In this document: positions 2,569 through 38,099 of the stretch, in pieces | Layout: every line of letters begins with the position of its first letter | How positions within the stretch are numbered: the first letter of the stretch is position 1 | Source: a virus | Taxonomy: Duplodnaviria > Heunggongvirae > Uroviricota > Caudoviricetes | Strand: one strand, 5' to 3' | IMG/VR virus record: IMGVR_UViG_2534681978_000021 | DNA length: 39,385 bases | Made by a program: the position numbers and the translations under genes | The notes under the pieces: generated by a model | The model's input: the letters and a program-made list of their open reading frames with translations, nothing else | The model's database searches: none | Told to the model about the DNA's origin: nothing

Positions 2569-4623
2569 TTACGCGTTATTCACTTCCACCACGATACTGT
2601 CAATCAGTACCGGGTAAGTCGCATTTTTAGTGATATCGGTCACGCGCAACTTGTCTGCCGTAAACGTGCCGACCGAAGACTGCGACAGCATGAATGGTGT
2701 CCCGTCCTTACCATCAATGACCGGCGTCACCTCAATACTGTTGTTACCGGCAAAACGGAAGCCCAGCGTATGCCATTCGTTATTAAATGCGCCGAATGAC
2801 CCCAACTTCGTGTTCTGCGCCGTGTTTCCTTTGTGATACATCACGTTAAGGTCTGTGGCATCGCTCTGTACGTAGAACGATGCCAGCAGGTTATGACCGG
2901 CATTTCCTTCCAGAGTAACCCCTTGCGGCAGGGCAGAAACCGGCCAGTACAGCGCCAGTGCGTACTGATTAGCCGTAAGCGCGCCATCGAGTTTAAAACG
3001 ACAACTGACAAGACCACCTTTACCCAGCAGGTCCGCACCATTACCAGCATCATGCTCAAGGTACCAGGGGGCTCTTCCTGTTTCCTTGGTCAGTTTCATT
3101 GCCTTACCCCCGCTGGCTCCGGCATCATCCACGATTTGAGCCTTGCCACCTCCGGCAGCCCAACCCTGTGGTGTCAACCGTCCTTCAGACTCAGATGCCC
3201 GGTAAGCAAATAGCGTACTCATCGTCGTGGTGTCTGCGGGTGGCGTGGACGGTTTTGATGGTGTATCAGGTGACGGCTTCTCATCCGGTGGTGTCACGGT
3301 CTGCCCGCGCATCAGTTCAGCCGTGCGCCCTGCATGGAGCATAATAGCTGAGGCCAGACGGTCTGAAATGACGCCCCTGCGTGCCCATGAGCTGAAATGG
3401 CTGTCACGCTGTGTCGAAACAAAACTGCCCTGGGTTCGGGATGCTGCACCGTAATACCCGACAGCCACAATATCCGGGTCTTCCGCCGGAGCATTCGTTG
3501 GCGTGCTCTGTCCATTCTCATCCGTCAGGAACGGTACAAAGAAAATTTTCTGTGCTTCCTTGCCTTTGTAGCCACCGTATACTGCCTCATATTTATCGGT
3601 GCCAGCGTTTTTCCAGTAATACGTGGTATCACCGCAAATCCACGGCACCGTGGTGGCATTTCCACTCACGCACTGCGCAGCAAGCGGAGCCAGGTCAGTT
3701 CTGAACTGCTGAACCATGGCCGTGAATAAACTATTATGCTGCTGGCTTCCTGAGGCAAGGTCTGCCTCTCCCTGCATCCAGACCACAGCCAGAAGTTTGT
3801 TTTTCGGGTTTTTCGCCAGCGCGACTTTGGTGCGGCTTACCAGGTCCTGATACAGAGGTTTACCGGCCCCCCAGCGTGAAGAATCAGCGGAAGCACCGCT
3901 GGCCTCACTGAATGAGCCGTCGGCTCCAGTGGTGAATGCTGACCCGCCACGACAACAGGGCACCAGAAGTATCCCGGCATTCTGTGGGATATAGGGAAGC
4001 AGTTTTTTGGCAATATGCAACCCCTGACCGACAGTCCCGTACTGGCCTTTTGCCAGATCAGCTTTCGGGTGGTTTATCCCGCTCATATCCTGAACATCAT
4101 GCAGGCAGTGGTCTGCCGGAATGATGTCGTTGTATGTACACGACGTACCGTTGGGCGTTACCGTACTGCGGCGTGCCAGTTGCTTAATGCGTGGGTCCGG
4201 GCGGTCAAACGAATCCGGTAACGGCAGCCCCTCGCCGTAGGCCATGCCATTTGACTGACCCGCGAGAATGACAACAAAGTAATATTCCGGCTCTGAACTG
4301 CTGCCATTCGTGCTACCGGAAGGCCCGGCGTTATCCGGTGCATTCCAGTCGGAGGGCGTGAGCGTTCCGGCCACGTCAGATGTGATTGGAATGATGCCAG
4401 TCACGCCTGAACTGGTGATTTCTGCACTGGGATTACCGGATACCGGCATTACCCATAATGGCTCTTTCGTGCTGAAGCGGATCACGCAGTCTGCGAAGGT
4501 GATCCCCCCTTTATTACCCGAAGGGCGGAAAGGGCTTTCAATAAATGCCACCGTGCCACCGGCAACCTTGACTGAAAACTCTCCGGGCATGGCGGAGAGC
4601 ATTTTCCACTTGGAGTCTGACAT
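2569..4623 (-). CDS. three-module SGNH/sialate-O-acetylesterase-family carbohydrate esterase (N-terminal ~110-aa domain, esterase core, Pro/Thr/Ser-rich linker, C-terminal ~230-aa domain)
   Basis: 684 aa; GQSNG motif at residues 122-126 and downstream WMQGEAD block typical of the SASA/SGNH esterase fold; PSPDTPSKPSTPPADTT linker. Confidence 0.7.
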   Translation of the reverse strand: MSDSKWKMLSAMPGEFSVKVAGGTVAFIESPFRPSGNKGGITFADCVIRFSTKEPLWVMPVSGNPSAEITSSGVTGIIPITSDVAGTLTPSDWNAPDNAGPSGSTNGSSSEPEYYFVVILAGQSNGMAYGEGLPLPDSFDRPDPRIKQLARRSTVTPNGTSCTYNDIIPADHCLHDVQDMSGINHPKADLAKGQYGTVGQGLHIAKKLLPYIPQNAGILLVPCCRGGSAFTTGADGSFSEASGASADSSRWGAGKPLYQDLVSRTKVALAKNPKNKLLAVVWMQGEADLASGSQQHNSLFTAMVQQFRTDLAPLAAQCVSGNATTVPWICGDTTYYWKNAGTDKYEAVYGGYKGKEAQKIFFVPFLTDENGQSTPTNAPAEDPDIVAVGYYGAASRTQGSFVSTQRDSHFSSWARRGVISDRLASAIMLHAGRTAELMRGQTVTPPDEKPSPDTPSKPSTPPADTTTMSTLFAYRASESEGRLTPQGWAAGGGKAQIVDDAGASGGKAMKLTKETGRAPWYLEHDAGNGADLLGKGGLVSCRFKLDGALTANQYALALYWPVSALPQGVTLEGNAGHNLLASFYVQSDATDLNVMYHKGNTAQNTKLGSFGAFNNEWHTLGFRFAGNNSIEVTPVIDGKDGTPFMLSQSSVGTFTADKLRVTDITKNATYPVLIDSIVVEVNNA

Positions 4624-4708
4624 CGTCTTTTCTGCCTGTTTCTGAATTAAACAGAGTCAGAATAGCGACCGCTGAAAAATATGTGTTTTGCGGAAATTCA
4701 AAAAAGCG

Positions 4709-5281
4709 TCACGGTACTTTTGGTGACGGAGCTGGTGAGGCAGGAAAATAACGATAAAGGGTGGAAAGGCCAATATCAAATATCAGTGCGATTTGTTTAC
4801 GGGACTCGCCATTAGCCAGCAAACGGGCGATTTGCTCCCGCTCTTTCTCTGTCAGTTTCTGAGGTCTGCCGCCATGACGCCCCTGAGCACGGGCAGCAGC
4901 AAGACCCGCGCGTGTACGTTCAATAATGAGTTCCCGCTCCATTTCCGCCAGCGCGCCCATTATATGGAAAAAGAAACGTCCCATGGGAGTGGATGTATCA
5001 ATATTGTCCGTAATGCTGCGGAAGTTAACGCCGCGTTGCCGGAGTTCTTCTGTTAAAAGGACAAGGTGCTGCATACTGCGTCCAAGGCGATCCAGTTTCC
5101 AGACCAGCAGGGTATCCCCTGGCCGGAGTCGCTTTAATGCGCGTTTAAGTCCGGGACGCTCCCTTGTCTTACCGCTTATTCTGTCTTCGAAAAACAGCTC
5201 ACATCCTGCACATTCCAGCGCATTTCTTTGTAGCGCCGTATTCTGGTCATTTGTTGACACCCTGATATACCCAATCAGCAT
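4709..5281 (-). CDS. gin: Gin-family serine DNA invertase
   Basis: 190 aa, N-terminus MLIGYIRVSTNDQNTALQRNA... and GRFFFHIMGALAEMERELIIERT nearly identical to Mu Gin. Confidence 0.95.
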   Translation of the reverse strand: MLIGYIRVSTNDQNTALQRNALECAGCELFFEDRISGKTRERPGLKRALKRLRPGDTLLVWKLDRLGRSMQHLVLLTEELRQRGVNFRSITDNIDTSTPMGRFFFHIMGALAEMERELIIERTRAGLAAARAQGRHGGRPQKLTEKEREQIARLLANGESRKQIALIFDIGLSTLYRYFPASPAPSPKVP

Positions 5282-5345
5282 ACGATTTCCTTATTATAAA
5301 AAGCCGGAATTGTCGCATGAGGAATAAAACAGAGTTAATCCTGGC

Positions 5346-5373
5346 TTTCCTGAAAACCTCGGTTTACGGGAAA
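5346..5373. other. gix-like inversion crossover site (gin-proximal)
   Basis: TTTCCTGAAAACCTCGGTTTACGGGAAA, close match to Mu gix core AAAACCTCGGTTTAC, as recalled. Confidence 0.65.
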
Positions 5374-5375
5374 CG

Positions 5376-5720
5376 GTGAATAAGGCGGCGAATGCTCTGC
5401 CATCGGACGGCACCGCCGTTGCCGCGAATAGACTCGCCACCCCAAGAAATATTAATGGGGTTCCCTTTGACGGGACGCAGGACATAAACATCACTTCTGG
5501 TATAACACAGCAGGATGCGGATTCCCGATATATCCAGGATATCAGGCTGGGAGCAGAGAACAGGCAGGTAATGTACGGTGGGGCATATTACTCTGCGTAC
5601 GGTAATGTTATGGCAGGCCTGCAGATTGACAGTAAAGTTGATGCTTCAAACGATTTTATAGCATTCAGACCCCTGCAAAAATTAGTCGGAGGTACATGGA
5701 TTACGGTATCTCAGTTATAA
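5376..5720 (+). CDS. alternative tail-fibre C-terminal variable module (silent in this orientation)
   Basis: frame opens at the gix site, shares the repeat-encoded peptide with the expressed fibre, then diverges; no start context of its own. Confidence 0.55.
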   Translation: MNKAANALPSDGTAVAANRLATPRNINGVPFDGTQDINITSGITQQDADSRYIQDIRLGAENRQVMYGGAYYSAYGNVMAGLQIDSKVDASNDFIAFRPLQKLVGGTWITVSQL

Positions 5721-5771
5721 ATAGTCAGTAAATAATATATTTTAAAACAGATTTATTTCCAGGAGGATTTT

Positions 5772-6293
5772 ATGGAACTAAAAAATATAACCCGTTATTA
5801 TCCTGAAAATATGCCATATGGTAATAATGTTCAGTATTTCCAGAGTGAAGATGGTAAGGATTTCTACGAATCCCTGCCATTATTCACCAAAAAATATAAA
5901 CTTTGCATAACACCTGACAGCGGCGTTATCTGCTCAATATCACAGGACGCCTCGGCGCTGTATCCTGCGGGGTTTTCTGTGGTTGAGGTCGATGAACTCC
6001 CTGAAGGCACGGATATTTCAGGAAACTGGAAGTTTGATAATGGCATAATCTCCCGTATTCCGGTTAACTACGCAAGAAAACTGGAAGCAATGCGCCAGTC
6101 ATATCTTAATCAGGCATATGAAAAAATTAATGACTGGAGAACGGAGCTACAACTGGGCACCATCAGCGATGAAGACAGAGCAGCACTTACCCAATGGATG
6201 GCATACATCAGTCAGGTGAAGAAAATGGAACTACCCGCCATTAAAACAGAAGCTGAATTTAACGCCATTAAATGGCCTGAGCAGCCACAGTAA
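5772..6293 (+). CDS. tail fibre assembly chaperone (Tfa/U-like)
   Basis: 173-aa ORF immediately downstream of the alternative fibre module inside the invertible segment. Confidence 0.75.
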   Translation: MELKNITRYYPENMPYGNNVQYFQSEDGKDFYESLPLFTKKYKLCITPDSGVICSISQDASALYPAGFSVVEVDELPEGTDISGNWKFDNGIISRIPVNYARKLEAMRQSYLNQAYEKINDWRTELQLGTISDEDRAALTQWMAYISQVKKMELPAIKTEAEFNAIKWPEQPQ

Positions 6294-6324
6294 TAAAGAA
6301 GGCCGGAAGGCCTTCTGAATATCA

Positions 6325-7206
6325 TTATATACTTGCAGCCGTCACCCATGCTCCATTTAACAGATACTGCAACGGCCGGTAATACACGCCGCCGACGTTA
6401 TCTGCCGTATTCTTACCGACATCCTGTACTTTAATTCCGGTAAGAACATTGCCGCCCCCCAGATTCAGATCCCAGCTTTCCCATGTTCCGGGCATATGTG
6501 CGGTCACCGACCCCAGTCTTATGGCGGTTACTGTTCCTGATGAGATAGTGATATCCTGCGTCCCGTCAAAGGGAACACCATTAATTGTGTGGGCATTTGC
6601 CAGCCTGTTCGCGGCAACGGCGGTGCCGTCCGATGGCAGGGCATTCGCCGCCCTGTTTACCGTTTCCCGTAAACCGACGTTATCGATAAAAGCCCCTTTA
6701 TCCGGAATGTCTGCGCCGTTCTGCTCCCTGCGCAGGTAACGGTTATCACCTTCGCTTTTGCTGTAAACATCCAGATTATTACGGGCGGTTCCCTTATTCT
6801 CCAGGTCGGCGAGATTCTGATCCTTCGCCAGGGCATTAACGTCACCGGGACCAAGACTGTTTTTTGTGGCAAGCGTCCCCAGACCAAGATAACCACGGGC
6901 CAGACGCTGGGCCTCCGCACCGGCATCAGCAATTTCTTTCAGGTTATTTTTCCGGGAAAAAGCATTCGCAGCGATAATGGCTTTAATGGACAGCGTAAGC
7001 TGGTTTAACTGCGCCTTATCCGGCTGAATACTGGCTTCAGCCAGAATATTCAGCAGTTCGGCCTGGAGAATATTCAGCCAGTCCTGACCAATCCAGCTGA
7101 TACCTTTTTGTCCGTCACCTTCAGTAAACCAGGTGGTGGTATTACTCTGCGCCGGTGCCAGCGCAGGCATATTCGCCACGCCGGAATTATTATCAACATG
7201 AAACAT
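6325..7206 (-). CDS. tail fibre protein (S-like; constant N-terminal part plus currently joined variable C-terminal part)
   Basis: 293 aa; C-terminal third lies inside the invertible segment. Confidence 0.8.
6662..6690. other. gix-like inversion crossover site (fibre-proximal)
   Basis: TTTCCCGTAAACCGACGTTATCGATAAA, inverted copy of the gin-proximal site. Confidence 0.6.
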
Positions 7207-7766
7207 TAAATAGTCTCCTCTTCATGGCTGTTTGCATACACGTAAATAAACGTCTGCCATGCAGGCTTATAACGGTTCAGAATACATTCCAGCGCACCGC
7301 CTTCATAAATACGCAGCGGCGTGAGAATATCATCCAGCACATTCATATTCCGGTAGCCGGTTTCACTGTTAATCGTGACAATACTGACCCACTGTGAATC
7401 CGGTGATGGCTGAATATCTATTTCATAACCAAACTCTGCCGCAAACCGGATATAAAATTCACGGTTAAGAGAGGGTTTCATCCGGTATTTATTCCCGGCA
7501 TAACGCTGACGCTCCTGAATGGTTGCGCCGGTCATATCACATTCCGGTAACCCCAGATAACGCTCCCAGTCTTCCAGCAGCAGACGGGATGAATCAGGAA
7601 AACGTTCTGCCAGCATCTGGTTACCGGTCCAGGAAACACGCTCCGTGGAATGACTGAGGCCCAGGCACAAAGCCGCAAGAACGGATGACGGCCGCTTATC
7701 CCATGCCAGCCCGTCAGGCAGCAACTGCAACAGGGCGCGCTGATGCGGGGTCAGGGTTACAGCCAT
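7206..7766 (-). CDS. tail/baseplate protein (Mu gp48 position)
   Basis: 186-aa ORF between baseplate J-like gene and fibre gene. Confidence 0.6.
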
Positions 7767-8839
7767 GTGATTTCTCCTACCGTCAGCAGCTCACTGTCTC
7801 CCGCCTGAACTGACGTCAGCGGACTGCGCACTTCAAAATCCTCCAGATTTTTCACCCCTGCCACCGCCCGCCAGAAAGACGACGGCAGAACCAGACCGCC
7901 GGGCCGGGATTCGTTATACAACAGGTCGGTCAGCGCCTGTTTTACGGCCGCCTGATTCTCCGGTGTTTTCGGGATGATCCTGATGCTGAAGGGCACCGGC
8001 TTATTGGTCAGTTTAAACACGGTCACCGTCGGCCCCAGAGGCTGTCCGACAGGCTGGCCGGTCGCCGGATCATCATGACTGCGGATATAATCCGCCACCC
8101 GCTGAACATCACCGTCACCGGGGAAAATGTCCGGGTTATTATCCTGAACAAACGTTACCCCCACGCTGCCCGCCTGCGGCCATTCCGGGCGGCACCATGC
8201 CCGCGTCACGCCCGGCACTTCACGCGCCCAGCGTTCAAAATCATACTGCGTGCCGCCGGACGGTGGATTCTGCACCCGGAAAACCAGACGGGAAAGCAGC
8301 TCCGGCACGGTTTCCACATCCGCACCACCGGTGATCCCCGTTCCGGTCACCGTGGCCGTCTGGTTGATCCCCGCCTGCGGTGTGATAAATGTCAGTTTTG
8401 TCCCTGCCGGGGCATTCCCCGCACGACCGGCACTTTCGGCTTCCACACTGACATTCAGCGTACCGGCCTTACCGGTCAGGGAGGTGGTGATACGGTAAAC
8501 CACACCATCACTTCGCTGGAGAAGCACACCTTCCTTGATCCCCGCATCCGTGGTCAGCATCAGCTGAACCGGCCCGTCCCCCCGAGAGGCAGGCTTACGC
8601 ATGACGCCCCAGAATGCACAGTGTTTCAGCAGTTCGGCTTCATCGGCTTCGGTCGGGATGATCTGACGCGCAATCCAGGCCAGATGCTCATGCTCCTGAG
8701 CAGATAACCCTGCCTGAGCGTAAGCAATGGCATTCAGGGTGGTTTCATTCACACCCGGCTGCGAGCCGGGCAGGCGCTGGCTGATATCCTGCTGTGTCTG
8801 CGTGATTAACTGTGCCAGCGGTAAAGGCTGATAAGGCAT
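7757..8839 (-). CDS. baseplate J-like protein (Mu gp47 position)
   Basis: 360 aa, synteny. Confidence 0.65.
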   Translation of the reverse strand: MPYQPLPLAQLITQTQQDISQRLPGSQPGVNETTLNAIAYAQAGLSAQEHEHLAWIARQIIPTEADEAELLKHCAFWGVMRKPASRGDGPVQLMLTTDAGIKEGVLLQRSDGVVYRITTSLTGKAGTLNVSVEAESAGRAGNAPAGTKLTFITPQAGINQTATVTGTGITGGADVETVPELLSRLVFRVQNPPSGGTQYDFERWAREVPGVTRAWCRPEWPQAGSVGVTFVQDNNPDIFPGDGDVQRVADYIRSHDDPATGQPVGQPLGPTVTVFKLTNKPVPFSIRIIPKTPENQAAVKQALTDLLYNESRPGGLVLPSSFWRAVAGVKNLEDFEVRSPLTSVQAGDSELLTVGEITWL

Positions 8840-9276
8840 TACTCCCCCTTAAGATCAGCATAAAAAATCATGGGCCTCACTGAACCATCAGGCAGGGTTA
8901 TGCGCACCGAAAGCGCCAGCCGCGCGTGTCCCACACGTTCTGCATGACAGACCACGGATGACGCCACGCCATCCTGACTGAGCCAGCCCAGCGCCTCATC
9001 CGCGTAAGCACGGGCACGGCTTATCACCGAGGCCAGCGTTTTTTCCCGGCGGAGAAGCCACAGACGGGAGCCAATGGGACGCGGGCGAAAACTGTCTCCC
9101 CACCATCCCCGGCGGTCACGCGTACCGTCAGGGATTTCATCCGATGCCAGCGCCCGGCGGTCAGTAAACAGCGAAATCAGAACGGCCGTCAGCAGACTGT
9201 CATCCGTCAGCAGGTCGGCACCGTTCAGTTGCAGCGAACCGCACCCCTGATCCCATACAATTGCAATATCAGCCAT
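8839..9276 (-). CDS. baseplate protein (Mu gp46 position)
   Basis: start taken at internal ATG (MADIAIVWDQG...) that overlaps the upstream gene stop as ATGGCTGA. Confidence 0.55.
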   Translation of the reverse strand: MADIAIVWDQGCGSLQLNGADLLTDDSLLTAVLISLFTDRRALASDEIPDGTRDRRGWWGDSFRPRPIGSRLWLLRREKTLASVISRARAYADEALGWLSQDGVASSVVCHAERVGHARLALSVRITLPDGSVRPMIFYADLKGE

Positions 9277-9883
9277 TCTCCGGCGCTCCTGTCTTACTGC
9301 CTTTGCCGTTATCCTGATGCACATGGCCGGAATAGGTGATCCCGGCAATAACGGCATCAGACATCGTGAACAGCCCGTCTGATTTACCTGTACCATCAAG
9401 CACGAAATTACCCTTAACATGCAGGTTTTTATCCACCGTCACATTGCCCGTAAAGGTGGCCTCCGGCGTATCCACCCGCATCCCCTCATCGGCGTAAATC
9501 TCCAGCATTTTGCATGTCACAATAATGCGACCATCCTTTGTTAACCGTATCCGGTGCCCCTCATGGTGATACACCCCCGTATCTCCGGCTGTGAGTCCGG
9601 TCGGGCGGCTGCGCCGGTCTTCCACCACAAGCACCACAGTCTGATCCCGCTGTCCGCCCAGACAGGCAAAAAAGGTTTCCGCACCCGGCAGGGGAACGCT
9701 GATCTGCCCGTACTGCTGGGGACGCTCCACATCATCAAAGGTTTCGCCGTCCATGCCGGTGAGCTGCACATTCTGCATTTTCAGTTCGTCATGTGTGCCG
9801 GTCAGAACGCCCCGGCCAAACAACAGGCGAATACCGCGCGTTACCGGGGCAATCAGGCGGCTGAACACTTCATCATTCATCAA
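9269..9883 (-). CDS. baseplate spike/V-like protein (Mu gp45 position)
   Basis: 204 aa, synteny. Confidence 0.55.
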   Translation of the reverse strand: MMNDEVFSRLIAPVTRGIRLLFGRGVLTGTHDELKMQNVQLTGMDGETFDDVERPQQYGQISVPLPGAETFFACLGGQRDQTVVLVVEDRRSRPTGLTAGDTGVYHHEGHRIRLTKDGRIIVTCKMLEIYADEGMRVDTPEATFTGNVTVDKNLHVKGNFVLDGTGKSDGLFTMSDAVIAGITYSGHVHQDNGKGSKTGAPENG

Positions 9884-34780: not shown

Positions 34781-35008
34781 TTAGCTGATTCGTTTTGCAC
34801 CGATAAAACGACAAATATTGCTGTAAGCTTCTTTCGCACCTTCACGATCAAGTCCTGCCGATATTGCCATTCTGGTGCGATCATTAAATTCAAAAAGTAA
34901 ATCGCCACATTCTTCACTGTCAGACACGGAGACTGCTTTGACGTTATCGAAATTCACCAGGTGAAAGCGTCCGTAAATATCAGGAATATTAAATGCAATC
35001 ATAATCAC
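34781..35008 (-). CDS. small early protein immediately downstream of B (Kil position in Mu)
   Basis: 75 aa; position and size only. Confidence 0.4.
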   Translation of the reverse strand: MIMIAFNIPDIYGRFHLVNFDNVKAVSVSDSEECGDLLFEFNDRTRMAISAGLDREGAKEAYSNICRFIGAKRIS

Positions 35009-35937
35009 ACCTGTGAGAGTAATTCAGGGTTGGTATAAACCTCTTTAAAGGCCGCATTAATATGTTTTTCTGTCAGCGCCGCGCCTTCACCACTGGCGGT
35101 GATCCATGCCTGGTTAAGCGTATGTGTCAGAACACGTAATGCTCCCGGTTTTTCAGCGATAGCCTGCATGACAGCCAGCTCGGCCTCACCACTGATACCC
35201 CACGCCCTGGCAATAGCCAGCACATCCGCCTTTTTGGCCTTGCGAAGTTGTTTTGTACGGGCAAGACGGCTGAACAGGCGCGATAAATCATCAACGGCGC
35301 GGCGCCCCCCCTTAAACAGTCCGCGCGGGTTACCAATAAGCACCATCCCGATCCCCGTGGCGTCCTGGATTGCACGCAGTTGTTCCAGACCGTCAATACC
35401 AAGATGATCCGCCTCATCAACAATCACCAGTCCACGCGTTCCCATCAGGCGACGGCGGATGGCGCGGGATAATGCCCCTTTGTTCGCGCGGGTGTAATCA
35501 ATTCCCAGCTCCTCGGCCAGCTCCAGCAGACACTCCGTGACGCTGGAATGCGCGGGAGACAGGGTTATCATCCAGGTGTTCGGTTGCTCCTGACAGTAAT
35601 TACGGGCCGTGGCCGTTTTACCCACACCCGGTACGCCCACAATGACGTTAATACAGCCCATCAGGCGAACCGCCTGAAACAGCGCGCGCAGCTCCTGGAC
35701 TGTCTGCGTTTCCACAAACTGCGGCGGTTCCGGCAGTGCGCTTTGTTTATTCCAGTTCTCATACCAGGAACGCAGGGAAGCAGCCACAGCGACGTTATCG
35801 CCTTTATATTTCCCCTTGCGGAAAGCCGATAATGTACCGTCGGAAATTCCCGCCTCTCTGGCGATGGCATACTGCGTCAGTACGCCGCCATCAATAAGTT
35901 CATCAATGGTCTTGATTACATCGTTAATATCGGTCAT
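35005..35937 (-). CDS. B: MuB-like ATP-dependent target DNA activator (AAA+)
   Basis: Walker A GVPGVGKT, LVIVDEADHL, KADV..IA...I.GE and GALR blocks collinear with Mu B. Confidence 0.9.
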   Translation of the reverse strand: MTDINDVIKTIDELIDGGVLTQYAIAREAGISDGTLSAFRKGKYKGDNVAVAASLRSWYENWNKQSALPEPPQFVETQTVQELRALFQAVRLMGCINVIVGVPGVGKTATARNYCQEQPNTWMITLSPAHSSVTECLLELAEELGIDYTRANKGALSRAIRRRLMGTRGLVIVDEADHLGIDGLEQLRAIQDATGIGMVLIGNPRGLFKGGRRAVDDLSRLFSRLARTKQLRKAKKADVLAIARAWGISGEAELAVMQAIAEKPGALRVLTHTLNQAWITASGEGAALTEKHINAAFKEVYTNPELLSQV

Positions 35938-36008: not shown

Positions 36009-38099
36009 TCAGGCCAGTGGATCACTTTCTTTTAATTTTGCTTCGAGCAGTTGCAATCCCCGCTGGAAATTACGCTCGTATTCTTCATCAGGTTCATCGT
36101 CAGCGACCGGTTGCTGAACGGTCACCGTATTACCCACAGGGCGGTATATGTTTTCCAGCCATGGCTCCTGCGGCTTGTGCTCCAGCACGTTGACAACCTC
36201 ATCCTCGGCATCACGGATTTTTTCCTCTGCGCGTTTACGCATACCTTTAAGGCGCTGTTGCTGTTTGTAGTATTCCGCGCTGACCGGGAAGGCTTCGCGT
36301 TTATTGCCGTCCCATACCGCCTCGCAAATCACGCTGCCATCCGGGCGACGAACGGTAATTCGTTCGGCATCATGAATGTCATAGCTGATAAGCACCTTGC
36401 GGCCATGCTCATCACGCAGCTCGGGCGCGTAGTAAATATTGTTCAGCCAGCGTATTTCACAGCGTCTTACAGGGCGCTCCACCATCGGCCGGAACATGTC
36501 CCGCAATTCCACATCGGACAGCCATTCAATTTCCGTATCCTCTTCTGCCAGGCGTTTTTTTCTGAACTCCGCCGGGCTGTAATGCTTGCCGTTCGGCTTC
36601 ACCGGTAATTCATCGTGCGGCCGGTTGTTGTACCACTCAACACCGTCACGAATGGCATCAATCAGTTCAGACCAGGACGGTAAATCACGCATCGCTGACT
36701 GCTGCCGGGCGTTCAGCCGTTTGCCCTGTTGCAGGGCAGTAAATGCCGAGCGTAAATCGCGGTTGGTTTTACGTAACGTCTCGCGATCTGCACCTTTCCC
36801 GAAATAGGTGCGGTATCTGCGGGCTATGCGCATCGGTAATGTGCGGTTAAGCCGTTCGATAATGCCCCGTCCCTGCGGGTTACCGGCAATTCCGGTCGGG
36901 TGATTAATCCCCAGTCGCGGCAGTATCCCCACAATCTCTTTATCCAGGATGTCGGCCGTTTCCCCGGAGCCGTTATCCGAGTAATACAGAAACGGTTTGC
37001 CGTGATGGCGAATACCGTGCTGTATGGCGCCGGCTACGGCGAAAACATTTTCAGCCAGGTCAAGGCTCCAGCCCACCACAAAGCGCGTGCCACCGTCGAT
37101 AACAAAGGTCACTTCCGGTGCAAATGGCCGCCCGTGAACCGGGTGCCTGCATTTCAGCTTCATGCCGTGACCGTCACCAATCCAGACATAATTAACCGGC
37201 ATTTTTGACCAGTCGCGGCGCGTGAATCCCTCAAGCTGGCGGTATTCACTGCCGGTCACCCGGCCTTTTTGTTTCACCACTTCCGGCAATTTTTTCATTG
37301 CGCGGCGAATAGTGTCATAAGAGGGCATGATATCGAGCATATAAGGCTCATCAGCGTGCCGGTGCTGCCATTCGGCGACAAAATCCTCGTAAGCCTCGGT
37401 CATTGGTCGGCCGTTTGACTGGCGATACTGCGCCAGAAATTCGGGCAGCCAGTTAATATCTTCGGCTTTTATTTCCTGGCGTTTACCCGGTGCCAGTAAA
37501 AGCAGGCGTTCAGCGGCGTTCTGTGCCTTGTTAAAGGCCGCAATCCAGCGTTTCAGCGTGATTTCACTCAACGCGCGGCGGTTTCCCTTTTTGGCGTTCG
37601 CTGTCTCAACCATTGCCACAATGCGCTCGTCCAGTTGTGAGCGTGACAGACGGTCAACAATAAACCGGATAGCTTTAGCGCAGCTGAAACCGGGTTGTTG
37701 CGCGAATTTCAGCACCTCGCTGACAATCGCGATTCGTGCATCAGCCACCTGGCGCTGGTTTTCAGTCAGGGCATTGAGGCGTTCGACCATCAGTTGTGGT
37801 GAACCGCGATATGCCTCCACCGCATCAACCACGTCAGGTGAGCGTCTGGCCTTTGTCACCACCGGAGCCGGTGATTCGTCGGCTTTTTGCGTCATCAGTT
37901 GCAGGGCGTAGCGTTCACGCAATGCCTGCTGCGTCACTTCAGGTAAACAGTCGATGCTGTATTCAGTTGCTTTAGAGCCTGAGCGACGACGGGAACAACA
38001 GCTTTTCCCTTGTGCGTAACGTTGTAATGCCTGGCGAATACCTTTTGTTGTAGCAGGCATTCCGGGCGCGCCAATCAGTTCTTTTGCAATGACATACAT
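36009..38099 (-). CDS. A: DDE transposase (MuA-like)
   Basis: 696 aa between ner and B; candidate DDE residues in VWIGDGHGM, YYSDNGSGE and downstream E; N-terminal DNA-binding domain. Confidence 0.85.
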   Translation of the reverse strand: MYVIAKELIGAPGMPATTKGIRQALQRYAQGKSCCSRRRSGSKATEYSIDCLPEVTQQALRERYALQLMTQKADESPAPVVTKARRSPDVVDAVEAYRGSPQLMVERLNALTENQRQVADARIAIVSEVLKFAQQPGFSCAKAIRFIVDRLSRSQLDERIVAMVETANAKKGNRRALSEITLKRWIAAFNKAQNAAERLLLLAPGKRQEIKAEDINWLPEFLAQYRQSNGRPMTEAYEDFVAEWQHRHADEPYMLDIMPSYDTIRRAMKKLPEVVKQKGRVTGSEYRQLEGFTRRDWSKMPVNYVWIGDGHGMKLKCRHPVHGRPFAPEVTFVIDGGTRFVVGWSLDLAENVFAVAGAIQHGIRHHGKPFLYYSDNGSGETADILDKEIVGILPRLGINHPTGIAGNPQGRGIIERLNRTLPMRIARRYRTYFGKGADRETLRKTNRDLRSAFTALQQGKRLNARQQSAMRDLPSWSELIDAIRDGVEWYNNRPHDELPVKPNGKHYSPAEFRKKRLAEEDTEIEWLSDVELRDMFRPMVERPVRRCEIRWLNNIYYAPELRDEHGRKVLISYDIHDAERITVRRPDGSVICEAVWDGNKREAFPVSAEYYKQQQRLKGMRKRAEEKIRDAEDEVVNVLEHKPQEPWLENIYRPVGNTVTVQQPVADDEPDEEYERNFQRGLQLLEAKLKESDPLA

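Follow-up and report, generated by a model that had tools for sequence, protein, structure and literature searches.

In the G-Gin switch of phage Mu, as in the invertible segments of P1 and e14, two chaperone genes are present and a dedicated tail fibre assembly (tfa) gene stands behind each of the two alternative fibre tips. For Mu, the literature assigns the binding of the distal fibre to the variable N-terminal domain of Tfa, and trimerisation to its conserved C-terminal helices (PMC9608196). Tfa is usually treated as the dedicated partner of the preceding fibre gene, and this pairing is relied upon by annotation pipelines as well as in fibre swapping, tailocin retargeting and phage-therapy host-range design. 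Here, we analysed a stretch of 39,385 nucleotides of a virus of the Caudoviricetes (IMG/VR record IMGVR_UViG_2534681978_000021; "the window" designates this whole stretch), which is a complete Mu-like transposable prophage of the Sp18 type, Sp18 being a prophage of Escherichia coli O157:H7 Sakai, and whose invertible tail-fibre segment harbors only one tfa gene. The system is a variation on the classical Mu G switch rather than a new kind of switch, and it differs from it in lacking a dedicated tfa gene for each tip.

As in Mu and SfMu, the invertase gene adjoins the segment and the 26-bp gix sites are nearly identical to those of SfMu, the crossover lies inside the fibre gene after a part homologous to residues 1–184 of Mu S, the tips have their homologue in the tip of Mu S and the chaperone in Mu U, and the whole is carried by a Mu-like element with homologues of MuA, MuB, Mom and the baseplate proteins gp44–48. 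On the other hand, the segment measures 1.3 kb instead of about 3 kb, the fibre counts 293–296 amino acids (aa) instead of 504, a single tfa gene takes the place of U and U', so that fibre and tfa are convergent in one orientation, and a gene encoding a SASA-esterase/DUF6645 protein, a DUF826 gene and other small open reading frames (ORFs) lie between gin and mom. Sp18 of the Sakai strain presents the same arrangement in the same orientation as the window (ECs4989, fibre; ECs4990, tfa; ECs4991, silent tip; ECs4992, invertase; ECs4993, DUF6645 protein), with the difference that its tips are of the A2 and B2 classes instead of A1 and B1, that its Tfa is 61% identical to that of the window and that the hairpin between fibre and tfa has another sequence. 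It was noted in 2009 that the invertible host-specificity region of Sp18 is unlike that of Mu (PMC2669165); the single chaperone and what follows from it are not taken up in the accessible literature.

Other inversion systems resemble this locus in part. The "Mu" locus of enteropathogenic E. coli (EPEC) E2348/69 has a 249-aa fibre gene after the YmfQ and baseplate J genes of a Mu-type tail module and an invertible segment of about 1.9 kb (Goldberg et al. 2014, PMC4272514), and sequencing reads from single-colony cultures contain both of its orientations, with 60 ± 8% forward (PMC4272514). It keeps, however, two convergent tfa genes and has an e14-type gix (AAACCTTGGTTTGGGAGAA); as a different element with two tfa genes, it was not retained as direct read-level evidence for the element of the window. 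Multi-site inversion systems, p15B Min being one of them, are approached by a Citrobacter braakii relative with three gix-like sites and three tips, whereas the window has only two sites and two tips. A P2-like prophage "shufflon" of E2348/69, in which three inverted repeats give three C-termini, is also described (Goldberg et al. 2014, PMC4272514). The paper on the carotovoricin pangenome is silent on how the chaperone is arranged. Finally, Certrevirus phages POP15, CR8 and phiTE, Rac-SA53 and the SfMu gp52/gp51 pair share the tip class (46–52% identity, signature SADNIGGVYY(K/R)P) and a related Tfa N-domain (38–61% identity) with the window, but in these pairs tfa is immediately downstream of the fibre gene and co-directional with it, and nothing inverts.

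The features of the segment and its borders, with their positions in the window, are the following.
4709–5281, minus strand: gin-type serine DNA invertase, 190 aa (PF00239 Resolvase, E 1.6e-51; PF02796 HTH_7, E 4.9e-15)
5347–5372: gixL, the gin-proximal crossover site, TTCCTGAAAACCTCGGTTTACGGGAA, matching SfMu gix
5352–5437 and 5451–5500: two arms of the left inverted repeat (repeat search), encoding the shared peptide
5355–5720, plus strand: silent alternative tip B1, 121 codons in frame from gixL, without a fibre N-terminus in the window's orientation
5359–6677: invertible segment of 1.3 kb, as verified; its reverse complement reproduces NZ_CM167682.1
5772–6293, plus strand: tail fibre assembly gene tfa of the Mu U type, 173 aa, the only one (PF02413, E 4.8e-19)
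6297–6316: G+C-rich hairpin lying between the stop codons of the two convergent genes, tfa and fibre, terminator-like on the minus strand, AGAAGGCCTTCCGGCCTTCT then TTATTACTGT
6325–7206, minus strand: fibre ORF, 293 aa (phrog_1833, E 4e-141)
6325–6677, minus strand: expressed tip module A1, the in-segment part of the fibre ORF, with the A-class signature
6536–6585 and 6599–6684: two arms of the right inverted repeat (repeat search)
6664–6689: gixR, the crossover site within the fibre gene, TTCCCGTAAACCGACGTTATCGATAA
6678–7206, minus strand: constant fibre part (Sc), 176 residues, homologous to Mu S
7206–7766, minus strand: Mu gp48/YmfQ baseplate gene (PF10076, E 2e-22)
7757–8839, minus strand: baseplate J/gp47 gene (PF04865, E 2.8e-62)

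The late tail operon runs on the minus strand from baseplate J through gp48/YmfQ to the fibre gene, and the position of the baseplate genes upstream (7206–8839) fixes the direction of late transcription into the segment. The invertase has the catalytic Ser9 within MLIGYIRVS and is, at the aa level, about 70% identical to SfMu Gin; over its first 240 nt, its gene aligns without gaps to SfMu gin with about three quarters identity, the Fis-site consensus being too degenerate for enhancer mapping. As expected of a Gin-family system, the two 26-bp sites are inverted relative to each other and have the same central dinucleotide, TC, read in the same sense, and both are close to the SfMu gix sites TTATCTAAAACCTCGGTTTACAGGAA and TTCCTGTAAACCGACGTTTTGGATAA. 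They occupy the outer ends of inverted repeats of about 155 bp, of which the arms 5352–5437/6599–6684 (86 nt) and 5451–5500/6536–6585 (50 nt) are 90% and 84% identical, respectively, with 130 of 161 aligned positions matching overall, and which encode on opposite strands the same peptide, starting GLRETVN(K/R).

Residues 1–191 of the fibre align to Mu S 1–184 (5yvq_A, E 1.4e-45; 8ju3_A, E 1.3e-46), the middle part of Mu S, about 230 residues, is absent, and the C-terminal stretch of some 70 residues is homologous to the distal tip of Mu S. Indeed, a profile built from seven A-class tips, the class being recognised by the signature xADN[IV][GA]GVY[YF], matches Mu S 440–503 at E 1.2e-7 and the phiTE short tail fibre at E 6e-29; in the phiTE structure paper, the tip is not resolved and Tfa is not mentioned. 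The last 66 aa or so of B1 are likewise homologous to the Mu S tip (residues 435–502 of 5yvq_A, domain i-E 1e-4), while tips A and B share only about 30% identity. As in Mu G and P1 C, the constant N-terminus is encoded outside the segment and the alternative C-termini on opposite strands inside it. A GTG-initiated ORF of 114 aa (5376–5720, plus strand) would give a free-standing tip-B fragment just upstream of tfa; RefSeq lists it as a pseudogene in this prophage and as a 67-aa "tail fiber protein" in O157.

Inversion of this segment is real. The region of interest is 100% identical in prophages of E. coli FORC_069, FORC_029, NCCP15648 and strain 102651, and E. coli NCCP 13983 (NZ_CM167682.1) carries positions 3100–9300 of the window with 5359–6677 reverse-complemented, without a single mismatch over 6201 bases. 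The fibre of NCCP 13983 is 296 aa long and ends in tip B1, which forms the C-terminus of the fibre in the flipped genome (L001), with tfa directly behind. The two natural orientations first differ at 5378 and last at 6658, which places the crossover inside the gix sites. The matches to FORC_043 show the same split pattern as the flipped genome. Furthermore, two IMG/VR contigs (L062 and L063) have segments that are 100% identical but inverted between flanks 99.6–99.9% identical, L038/L039 present the same picture for the O157 type, and L056/L061 are a further orientation pair, so that, as is typical of Gin-family systems, both orientations are found. An initial annotation, made from the sequence alone, had described gix-like sites and inverted repeats encoding one peptide on both strands, had anticipated that inversion would join the constant part to the alternative tip followed by Tfa, and had asked for both orientations in sequencing data: the first two are borne out by the anatomy given above, the predicted junction is the one seen in NCCP 13983, and the last is answered at the genome level by prophages identical except for their orientation. 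L062 and L063 are two contigs of the same IMG genome (2617271340) and may represent either two copies of a transposed prophage or alternative paths of the assembly. Besides, 9 of the about 40 IMG/VR contigs of the family (L030, L036, L044, L047, L048, L050, L052, L053 and L054) end within about 100 bp of the boundary between the constant and variable fibre parts, and contig ends at the gixR/inverted-repeat region are as expected if the cultures held both orientations, since mixed reads tend to break assemblies.

The single-tfa layout is a conserved design of the family and not a local defect. The IMG/VR database was searched with an alignment of the constant fibre part and the loci retrieved were annotated with hidden Markov models on six-frame translations; this proved far more productive than a search of genome contigs with the whole fibre protein, which gave 8 loci, one of them (C. 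braakii) informative. While each of the 28 Sp18-type IMG/VR loci has exactly one tfa gene, the 13 Mu/SfMu-type loci from the same search have two convergent ones, and several non-invertible fibre-tfa pairs were retrieved as well. The order Sc, tip, one tfa, tip, gin is found in every Sp18-type locus, whether from E. coli genomes or from IMG/VR, and O157:H7, STEC2017-197, SCU-171 and STEC299 have in this order the fibre, one tfa, the silent tip, the invertase and the DUF6645 protein. About 35 related loci share the one-tfa layout. Only one tfa is likewise found in two relatives with long fibres, L013/L066 and L057. L013 (C. braakii ATCC 51113, 5001–8871) and the IMG/VR locus L066 have a 472-aa fibre, a single 229-aa tfa product and three alternative tips, with three gix-like sites in L013 (5812–5837, 7839–7864 and 8205–8230), and look like a multi-inversion, shufflon-like version of the one-chaperone design.

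Across the Sp18-type loci, about 35 in number, the tip convergent to tfa is always of the A class (A1 or A2), whereas the tip upstream of tfa is of quite different kinds, namely B1, B2 or the Mu-S-like B3, in the combinations A1B1, A1B3, A2B2 and A2B3. There are two types of Tfa, with N-domains 84–100% or 70–74% identical to that of the window. The mixed combinations of tips and Tfa indicate that the modules are shuffled by recombination and that Tfa does not track the B tip; a strict co-variation of the Tfa type with either tip A or tip B was considered, and neither holds.

The product of the tfa gene scores 69.2 bits against Caudo_TAP (PF02413, cutoff 22.1) and matches Mu U (5yvq_B, E 4.2e-16) and phrog_136 (E 4.7e-56). 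It is the only Caudo_TAP gene of the segment, in place of the two co-directional genes, each dedicated to a tip, of Mu G and P1 C. In the orientation of the window, hereafter orientation A, the end of the fibre ORF is convergent to tfa, and a co-directional tfa downstream of the fibre gene is found in orientation B (L001). No chaperone-like ORF is present on the minus strand downstream of the fibre gene: the small antisense ORFs at 5864–6046, 5294–5494 and 6212–6349 were considered and have no PHROG match, the longest of them is not conserved in the O157 variant, and the next minus-strand genes past the segment encode Gin, the SASA/DUF6645 protein, DUF826 and Mom. The initial annotation was thus right in counting one Tfa gene and in describing the present fibre as lacking a downstream chaperone, and the overlooked chaperone ORF that it had named as fatal to its proposal was looked for and not found.

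A hairpin stands between the two convergent stop codons in all variants, at the same place and with differing sequence, AGAAGGCC..GGCCTTCT in the presence of A1 tips and GGGTGC..GCACCC in the presence of A2 tips, the O157 and STEC299 variants likewise having a hairpin of other sequence there. It scores as terminator-like for the fibre strand in the window and for the tfa strand in the O157 variant, and plausibly keeps the two convergent transcripts apart.

We give roughly even chances to the reading in which this locus is a functional two-state host-range switch with one Mu-U-type chaperone common to both tips and supplied from different promoters according to the orientation. Gin recombines gixL and gixR and flips the 1.3-kb segment, whereby the constant 176-residue N-terminus of a shortened Mu-S-type fibre is fused to tip A, as in the window, or to tip B; a single Tfa would serve both. 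In orientation B, tfa stands immediately behind the fibre gene and would be reached by late-operon transcription. In orientation A, where tfa is convergent to the fibre gene, the hairpin between the stop codons would separate the transcripts, and tfa would share a transcript with the silent tip-B fragment, one that starts on the gin-proximal side and does not depend on the late operon. Two things are thereby supposed, namely an action of Tfa on tip A and its production in orientation A. More tentatively, and with somewhat less than even odds, tfa may be rendered independent of orientation by two sources of transcription, the late operon on one side and, on the other, a growth-phase-responsive promoter acting from the invertase side and also reading the silent tip.

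That Tfa acts on A-class tips is suggested by their usual partners. Such tips are found in Pectobacterium phage POP15, Cronobacter phage CR8, Escherichia phages Av-05 and 19-1-2, SfMu gp52 and Rac-SA53, and in the six phages examined a tfa-like gene is, without exception, directly behind the tip and co-directional with it. Among phage records, the closest relative of the Tfa N-domain of the window is Rac-SA53 tail2 (61% identity), located behind an A2-like tip; identity is 38–44% with the Certrevirus Tfas that follow A-class tips and 33–39% with SfMu U and U'. The second closest phage relative (56%) is the Tfa N-domain of phage 186, a non-inverting phage whose fibre gene K contains a relic annotated in GenBank as a "Mu-like inversion crossover site" (L021, 1909–1934).

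Tip A is under strong purifying selection, with a ratio of nonsynonymous to synonymous divergence (omega) of 0.05–0.18 at synonymous divergences (dS) of 0.2–1.7 for the last 70 codons of A-class tips and of 0.07–0.15 for the A1 tip module, and its ORF is intact in every copy. Purifying selection also acts on tip B (omega 0.09–0.14 where divergence is sufficient) and on tfa (0.10–0.23). Furthermore, one widespread lineage has lost most of gin, gixL and most of tip B through a single shared deletion and is frozen in orientation A. It includes the mouse strains M1, M3 and M18, the human strain CI5 and eight IMG/VR contigs (among them L024–L026, L035, L043, L045 and L051), which share the junction ...GGCCAATAYGATAACCGCATATTACCGGCTTATAATT..., for example at 1524–1829 of L002 (E. 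coli M3, NZ_CP010183.1). In this gin-less lineage the tips are A1 or A2, and tfa is full-length in all 12 copies seen.

The expression data, all of them from the related prophage of the O157 Sakai strain, whose reference genome is in orientation A, are consistent with a supply of Tfa in this orientation. Bergholz et al. 2007 followed the growth phases by microarray (10 points; PMC2241611, main table and Additional file 2); in their series, ECs4991 (the silent tip fragment) and ECs4990 (tfa) have near-superimposable profiles, from about -1.0 to +1.3 log2, rising at the transition to stationary phase, while ECs4989 (the fibre) shows little change (-0.45 to +0.46), ECs4986 falls and ECs4993 is flat (PMC2241611). 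A single transcription unit that runs into the segment from the side of the invertase and does not depend on the late operon would be expected to produce such profiles. The co-induction of ECs4990 and ECs4991 (L102, 2975–3779) amounts to about 5-fold and takes place in an uninduced lysogen, unlike the behavior of the prophage neighbours (PMC2241611).

Orientation A is also the more common one. It is found in 18 of the 20 complete E. coli genomes matching at 95% identity or more (B in the other 2), in about 181 of 184 O157-type genomes, with one visible flipped example, 2014C-3050, according to match coordinates, and in IMG/VR in 22 loci against 6 in orientation B, these counts not being phylogenetically independent. 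Together with the near-identical flipped pairs, they fit a slow inversion. If inversion is slow, a lysogen would retain whichever orientation its founding virion had, and the predominance of orientation A in E. coli would imply, by analogy with Mu G(+), that A virions infect this species.

Several observations weigh against a chaperone shared by the two tips and supplied in both orientations. The expression series was obtained with 70-mer probes of the 2007 era on an uninduced culture, with possible cross-hybridisation to other prophage tfa genes, and it concerns a relative whose Tfa is only 61% identical, in a culture of unchecked orientation. Between gin and tfa, no convincing promoter was found on the strand of tfa: when the window, the gin-less M3 locus and the O157 locus were scanned for the sigma-70 consensus, they returned no more sites than shuffled sequences and none persuasively placed, and inspection by eye of both types of gin-gix spacer yielded no defensible promoter. 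Since ECs4991 is co-regulated with tfa, transcription would start upstream of the 3' half of tip B, a region deleted in the gin-less lineage, where transcription of tfa would consequently have to rely on a different promoter; TGGACA-17-CATATT at the junction, the sole candidate in that lineage, does not stand out from chance. In this lineage tfa is 89–96% identical against 94–100% for the upstream flank, and part of this divergence may have been imported by recombination, which makes the gin-less argument supportive and not decisive and weakens the omega of the gin-less tfa as a proof of function in orientation A. Furthermore, in one locus in orientation A (L034), homology is lost in the middle of tfa (at about 7146, equivalent to about 6062 of the window) and unrelated sequence follows, so that the chaperone gene is disrupted. 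The clade of the Tfa N-domain also includes partners of non-A tips (phage 186 and a Klebsiella ST405 phage), which makes the likeness of N-domains suggestive only and leaves a specificity for tip A unsupported. Lastly, the phage collection holds no plaque-forming Sp18-type isolate, so that the infectivity of either orientation is presumptive.

An explanation that we regard as improbable, though the best placed of the rivals, is that the dependence on the chaperone is toggled with the orientation, tip A folding and trimerising without Tfa and only tip B needing the adjacent one. It has in its favor that every member of the family has tfa downstream of tip B, in the place of its partner, and that no promoter was found for tfa in orientation A; moreover, if tip A is autonomous, the selection on it and the frequency of orientation A need no extra assumption. 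Yet A-class tips are followed by tfa in six of the six phages checked and share homology with the tip domain of Mu S, for which U is the chaperone (PMC9608196), the A-frozen lineage without tip B keeps intact a tfa that toggling would make useless, and Tfa does not follow the marked differences between B1, B2 and B3. The initial annotation had suggested that the two orientations may differ in chaperone dependence or that one of them may be a non-functional off state. Its anatomy (the segment, the single Tfa, and the flip joining the other tip to Tfa) stands, while its consequences fare less well: a differing dependence is less likely than a shared chaperone, which is favored because A-class tips have their own tfa in all six phages, because of the Rac-SA53 relative and because of the co-regulation in Sakai, and the off state is disfavored by the selection on tip A, by the prevalence of orientation A and by the gin-less lineage frozen in A with its tfa.

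A further step down in probability, the fibre of orientation A might be folded in trans by Tfa proteins of co-resident prophages, the element's own tfa mattering only in orientation B. Tfa proteins of different phages can replace one another, E. coli hosts carry many prophage tfa genes, and a query with the N-domain finds Rac-like and P2-like relatives. Such a function would, however, hang on chance co-residents, whereas many E. coli lineages, and Citrobacter too, have the layout conserved, and both the retention of tfa in the A-frozen lineage devoid of tip B and the independent co-regulation of ECs4990 and ECs4991 would be left unexplained.

Least probable of all, and very unlikely in our view, is that orientation A yields fibreless or non-infective particles, as the "off" position of a bet-hedging device or as a degenerate Mu G segment minus U', which would fit the second tfa missing by comparison with Mu, SfMu and the short-fibre element of E2348/69, the terminator-like hairpin behind the fibre gene and the lack of an isolated Sp18-type phage in the phage collection, but which is at odds with the low omega of tip A over deep synonymous divergence and its ORF intact in every copy, with the A-class tip found at this position in all of the about 35 loci as two allelic classes exchanged by recombination, with orientation A being the majority state, and with an element present in 238 of 5426 complete E. 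coli genomes and whose DNA is, in the case of Sp18, efficiently packaged (PMC2669165).

The locus bears on the specificity of Tfa whichever way it works, since either one Tfa serves tips that differ widely and has a supply that does not hang on the late operon, or a Mu-type tip folds alone, and the gin-deleted lineage frozen in orientation A offers a natural control for both answers. Should tfa indeed have two sources of transcription, one Tfa would fold tips sharing about 30% identity, a Mu-U-type chaperone would be a generalist for a conserved distal tip motif, and the system would provide a compact template for engineered two-state host-range switches.

Beyond the segment, the window contains MuA, MuB, Mom and Mu-type baseplate genes in the order of Mu, as expected of a Mu-like prophage, with the following features in addition to those given above.
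209–946: Mom (PF25680)
35005–35937: MuB (PF09077)
36009–38099: MuA-type transposase (PF09299 and PF02316)

The element belongs to the family of prophage Sp18 of O157:H7 Sakai, and the complete E. coli genomes that carry it (about 4%) include those of O157:H7. Sp18-type Mu-like phages are annotated as insertions within the genomes of Shiga toxin (Stx)-converting phages (LC727881.1, Stx2c; LC727895.1, Stx1a), which is evidence of active transposition in the family. Directly after gin, at a position conserved in all Sp18-type loci, a gene on the minus strand (2569–4623) encodes a 684-aa protein with a SASA domain (PF03629, sialate O-acetylesterase) and a C-terminal DUF6645 (phrog_143, function unknown), beyond which lie DUF826 (1952–2206) and then Mom (209–946). 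This SASA/DUF6645 protein could be a receptor-modifying tail enzyme or a lysogenic-conversion enzyme.

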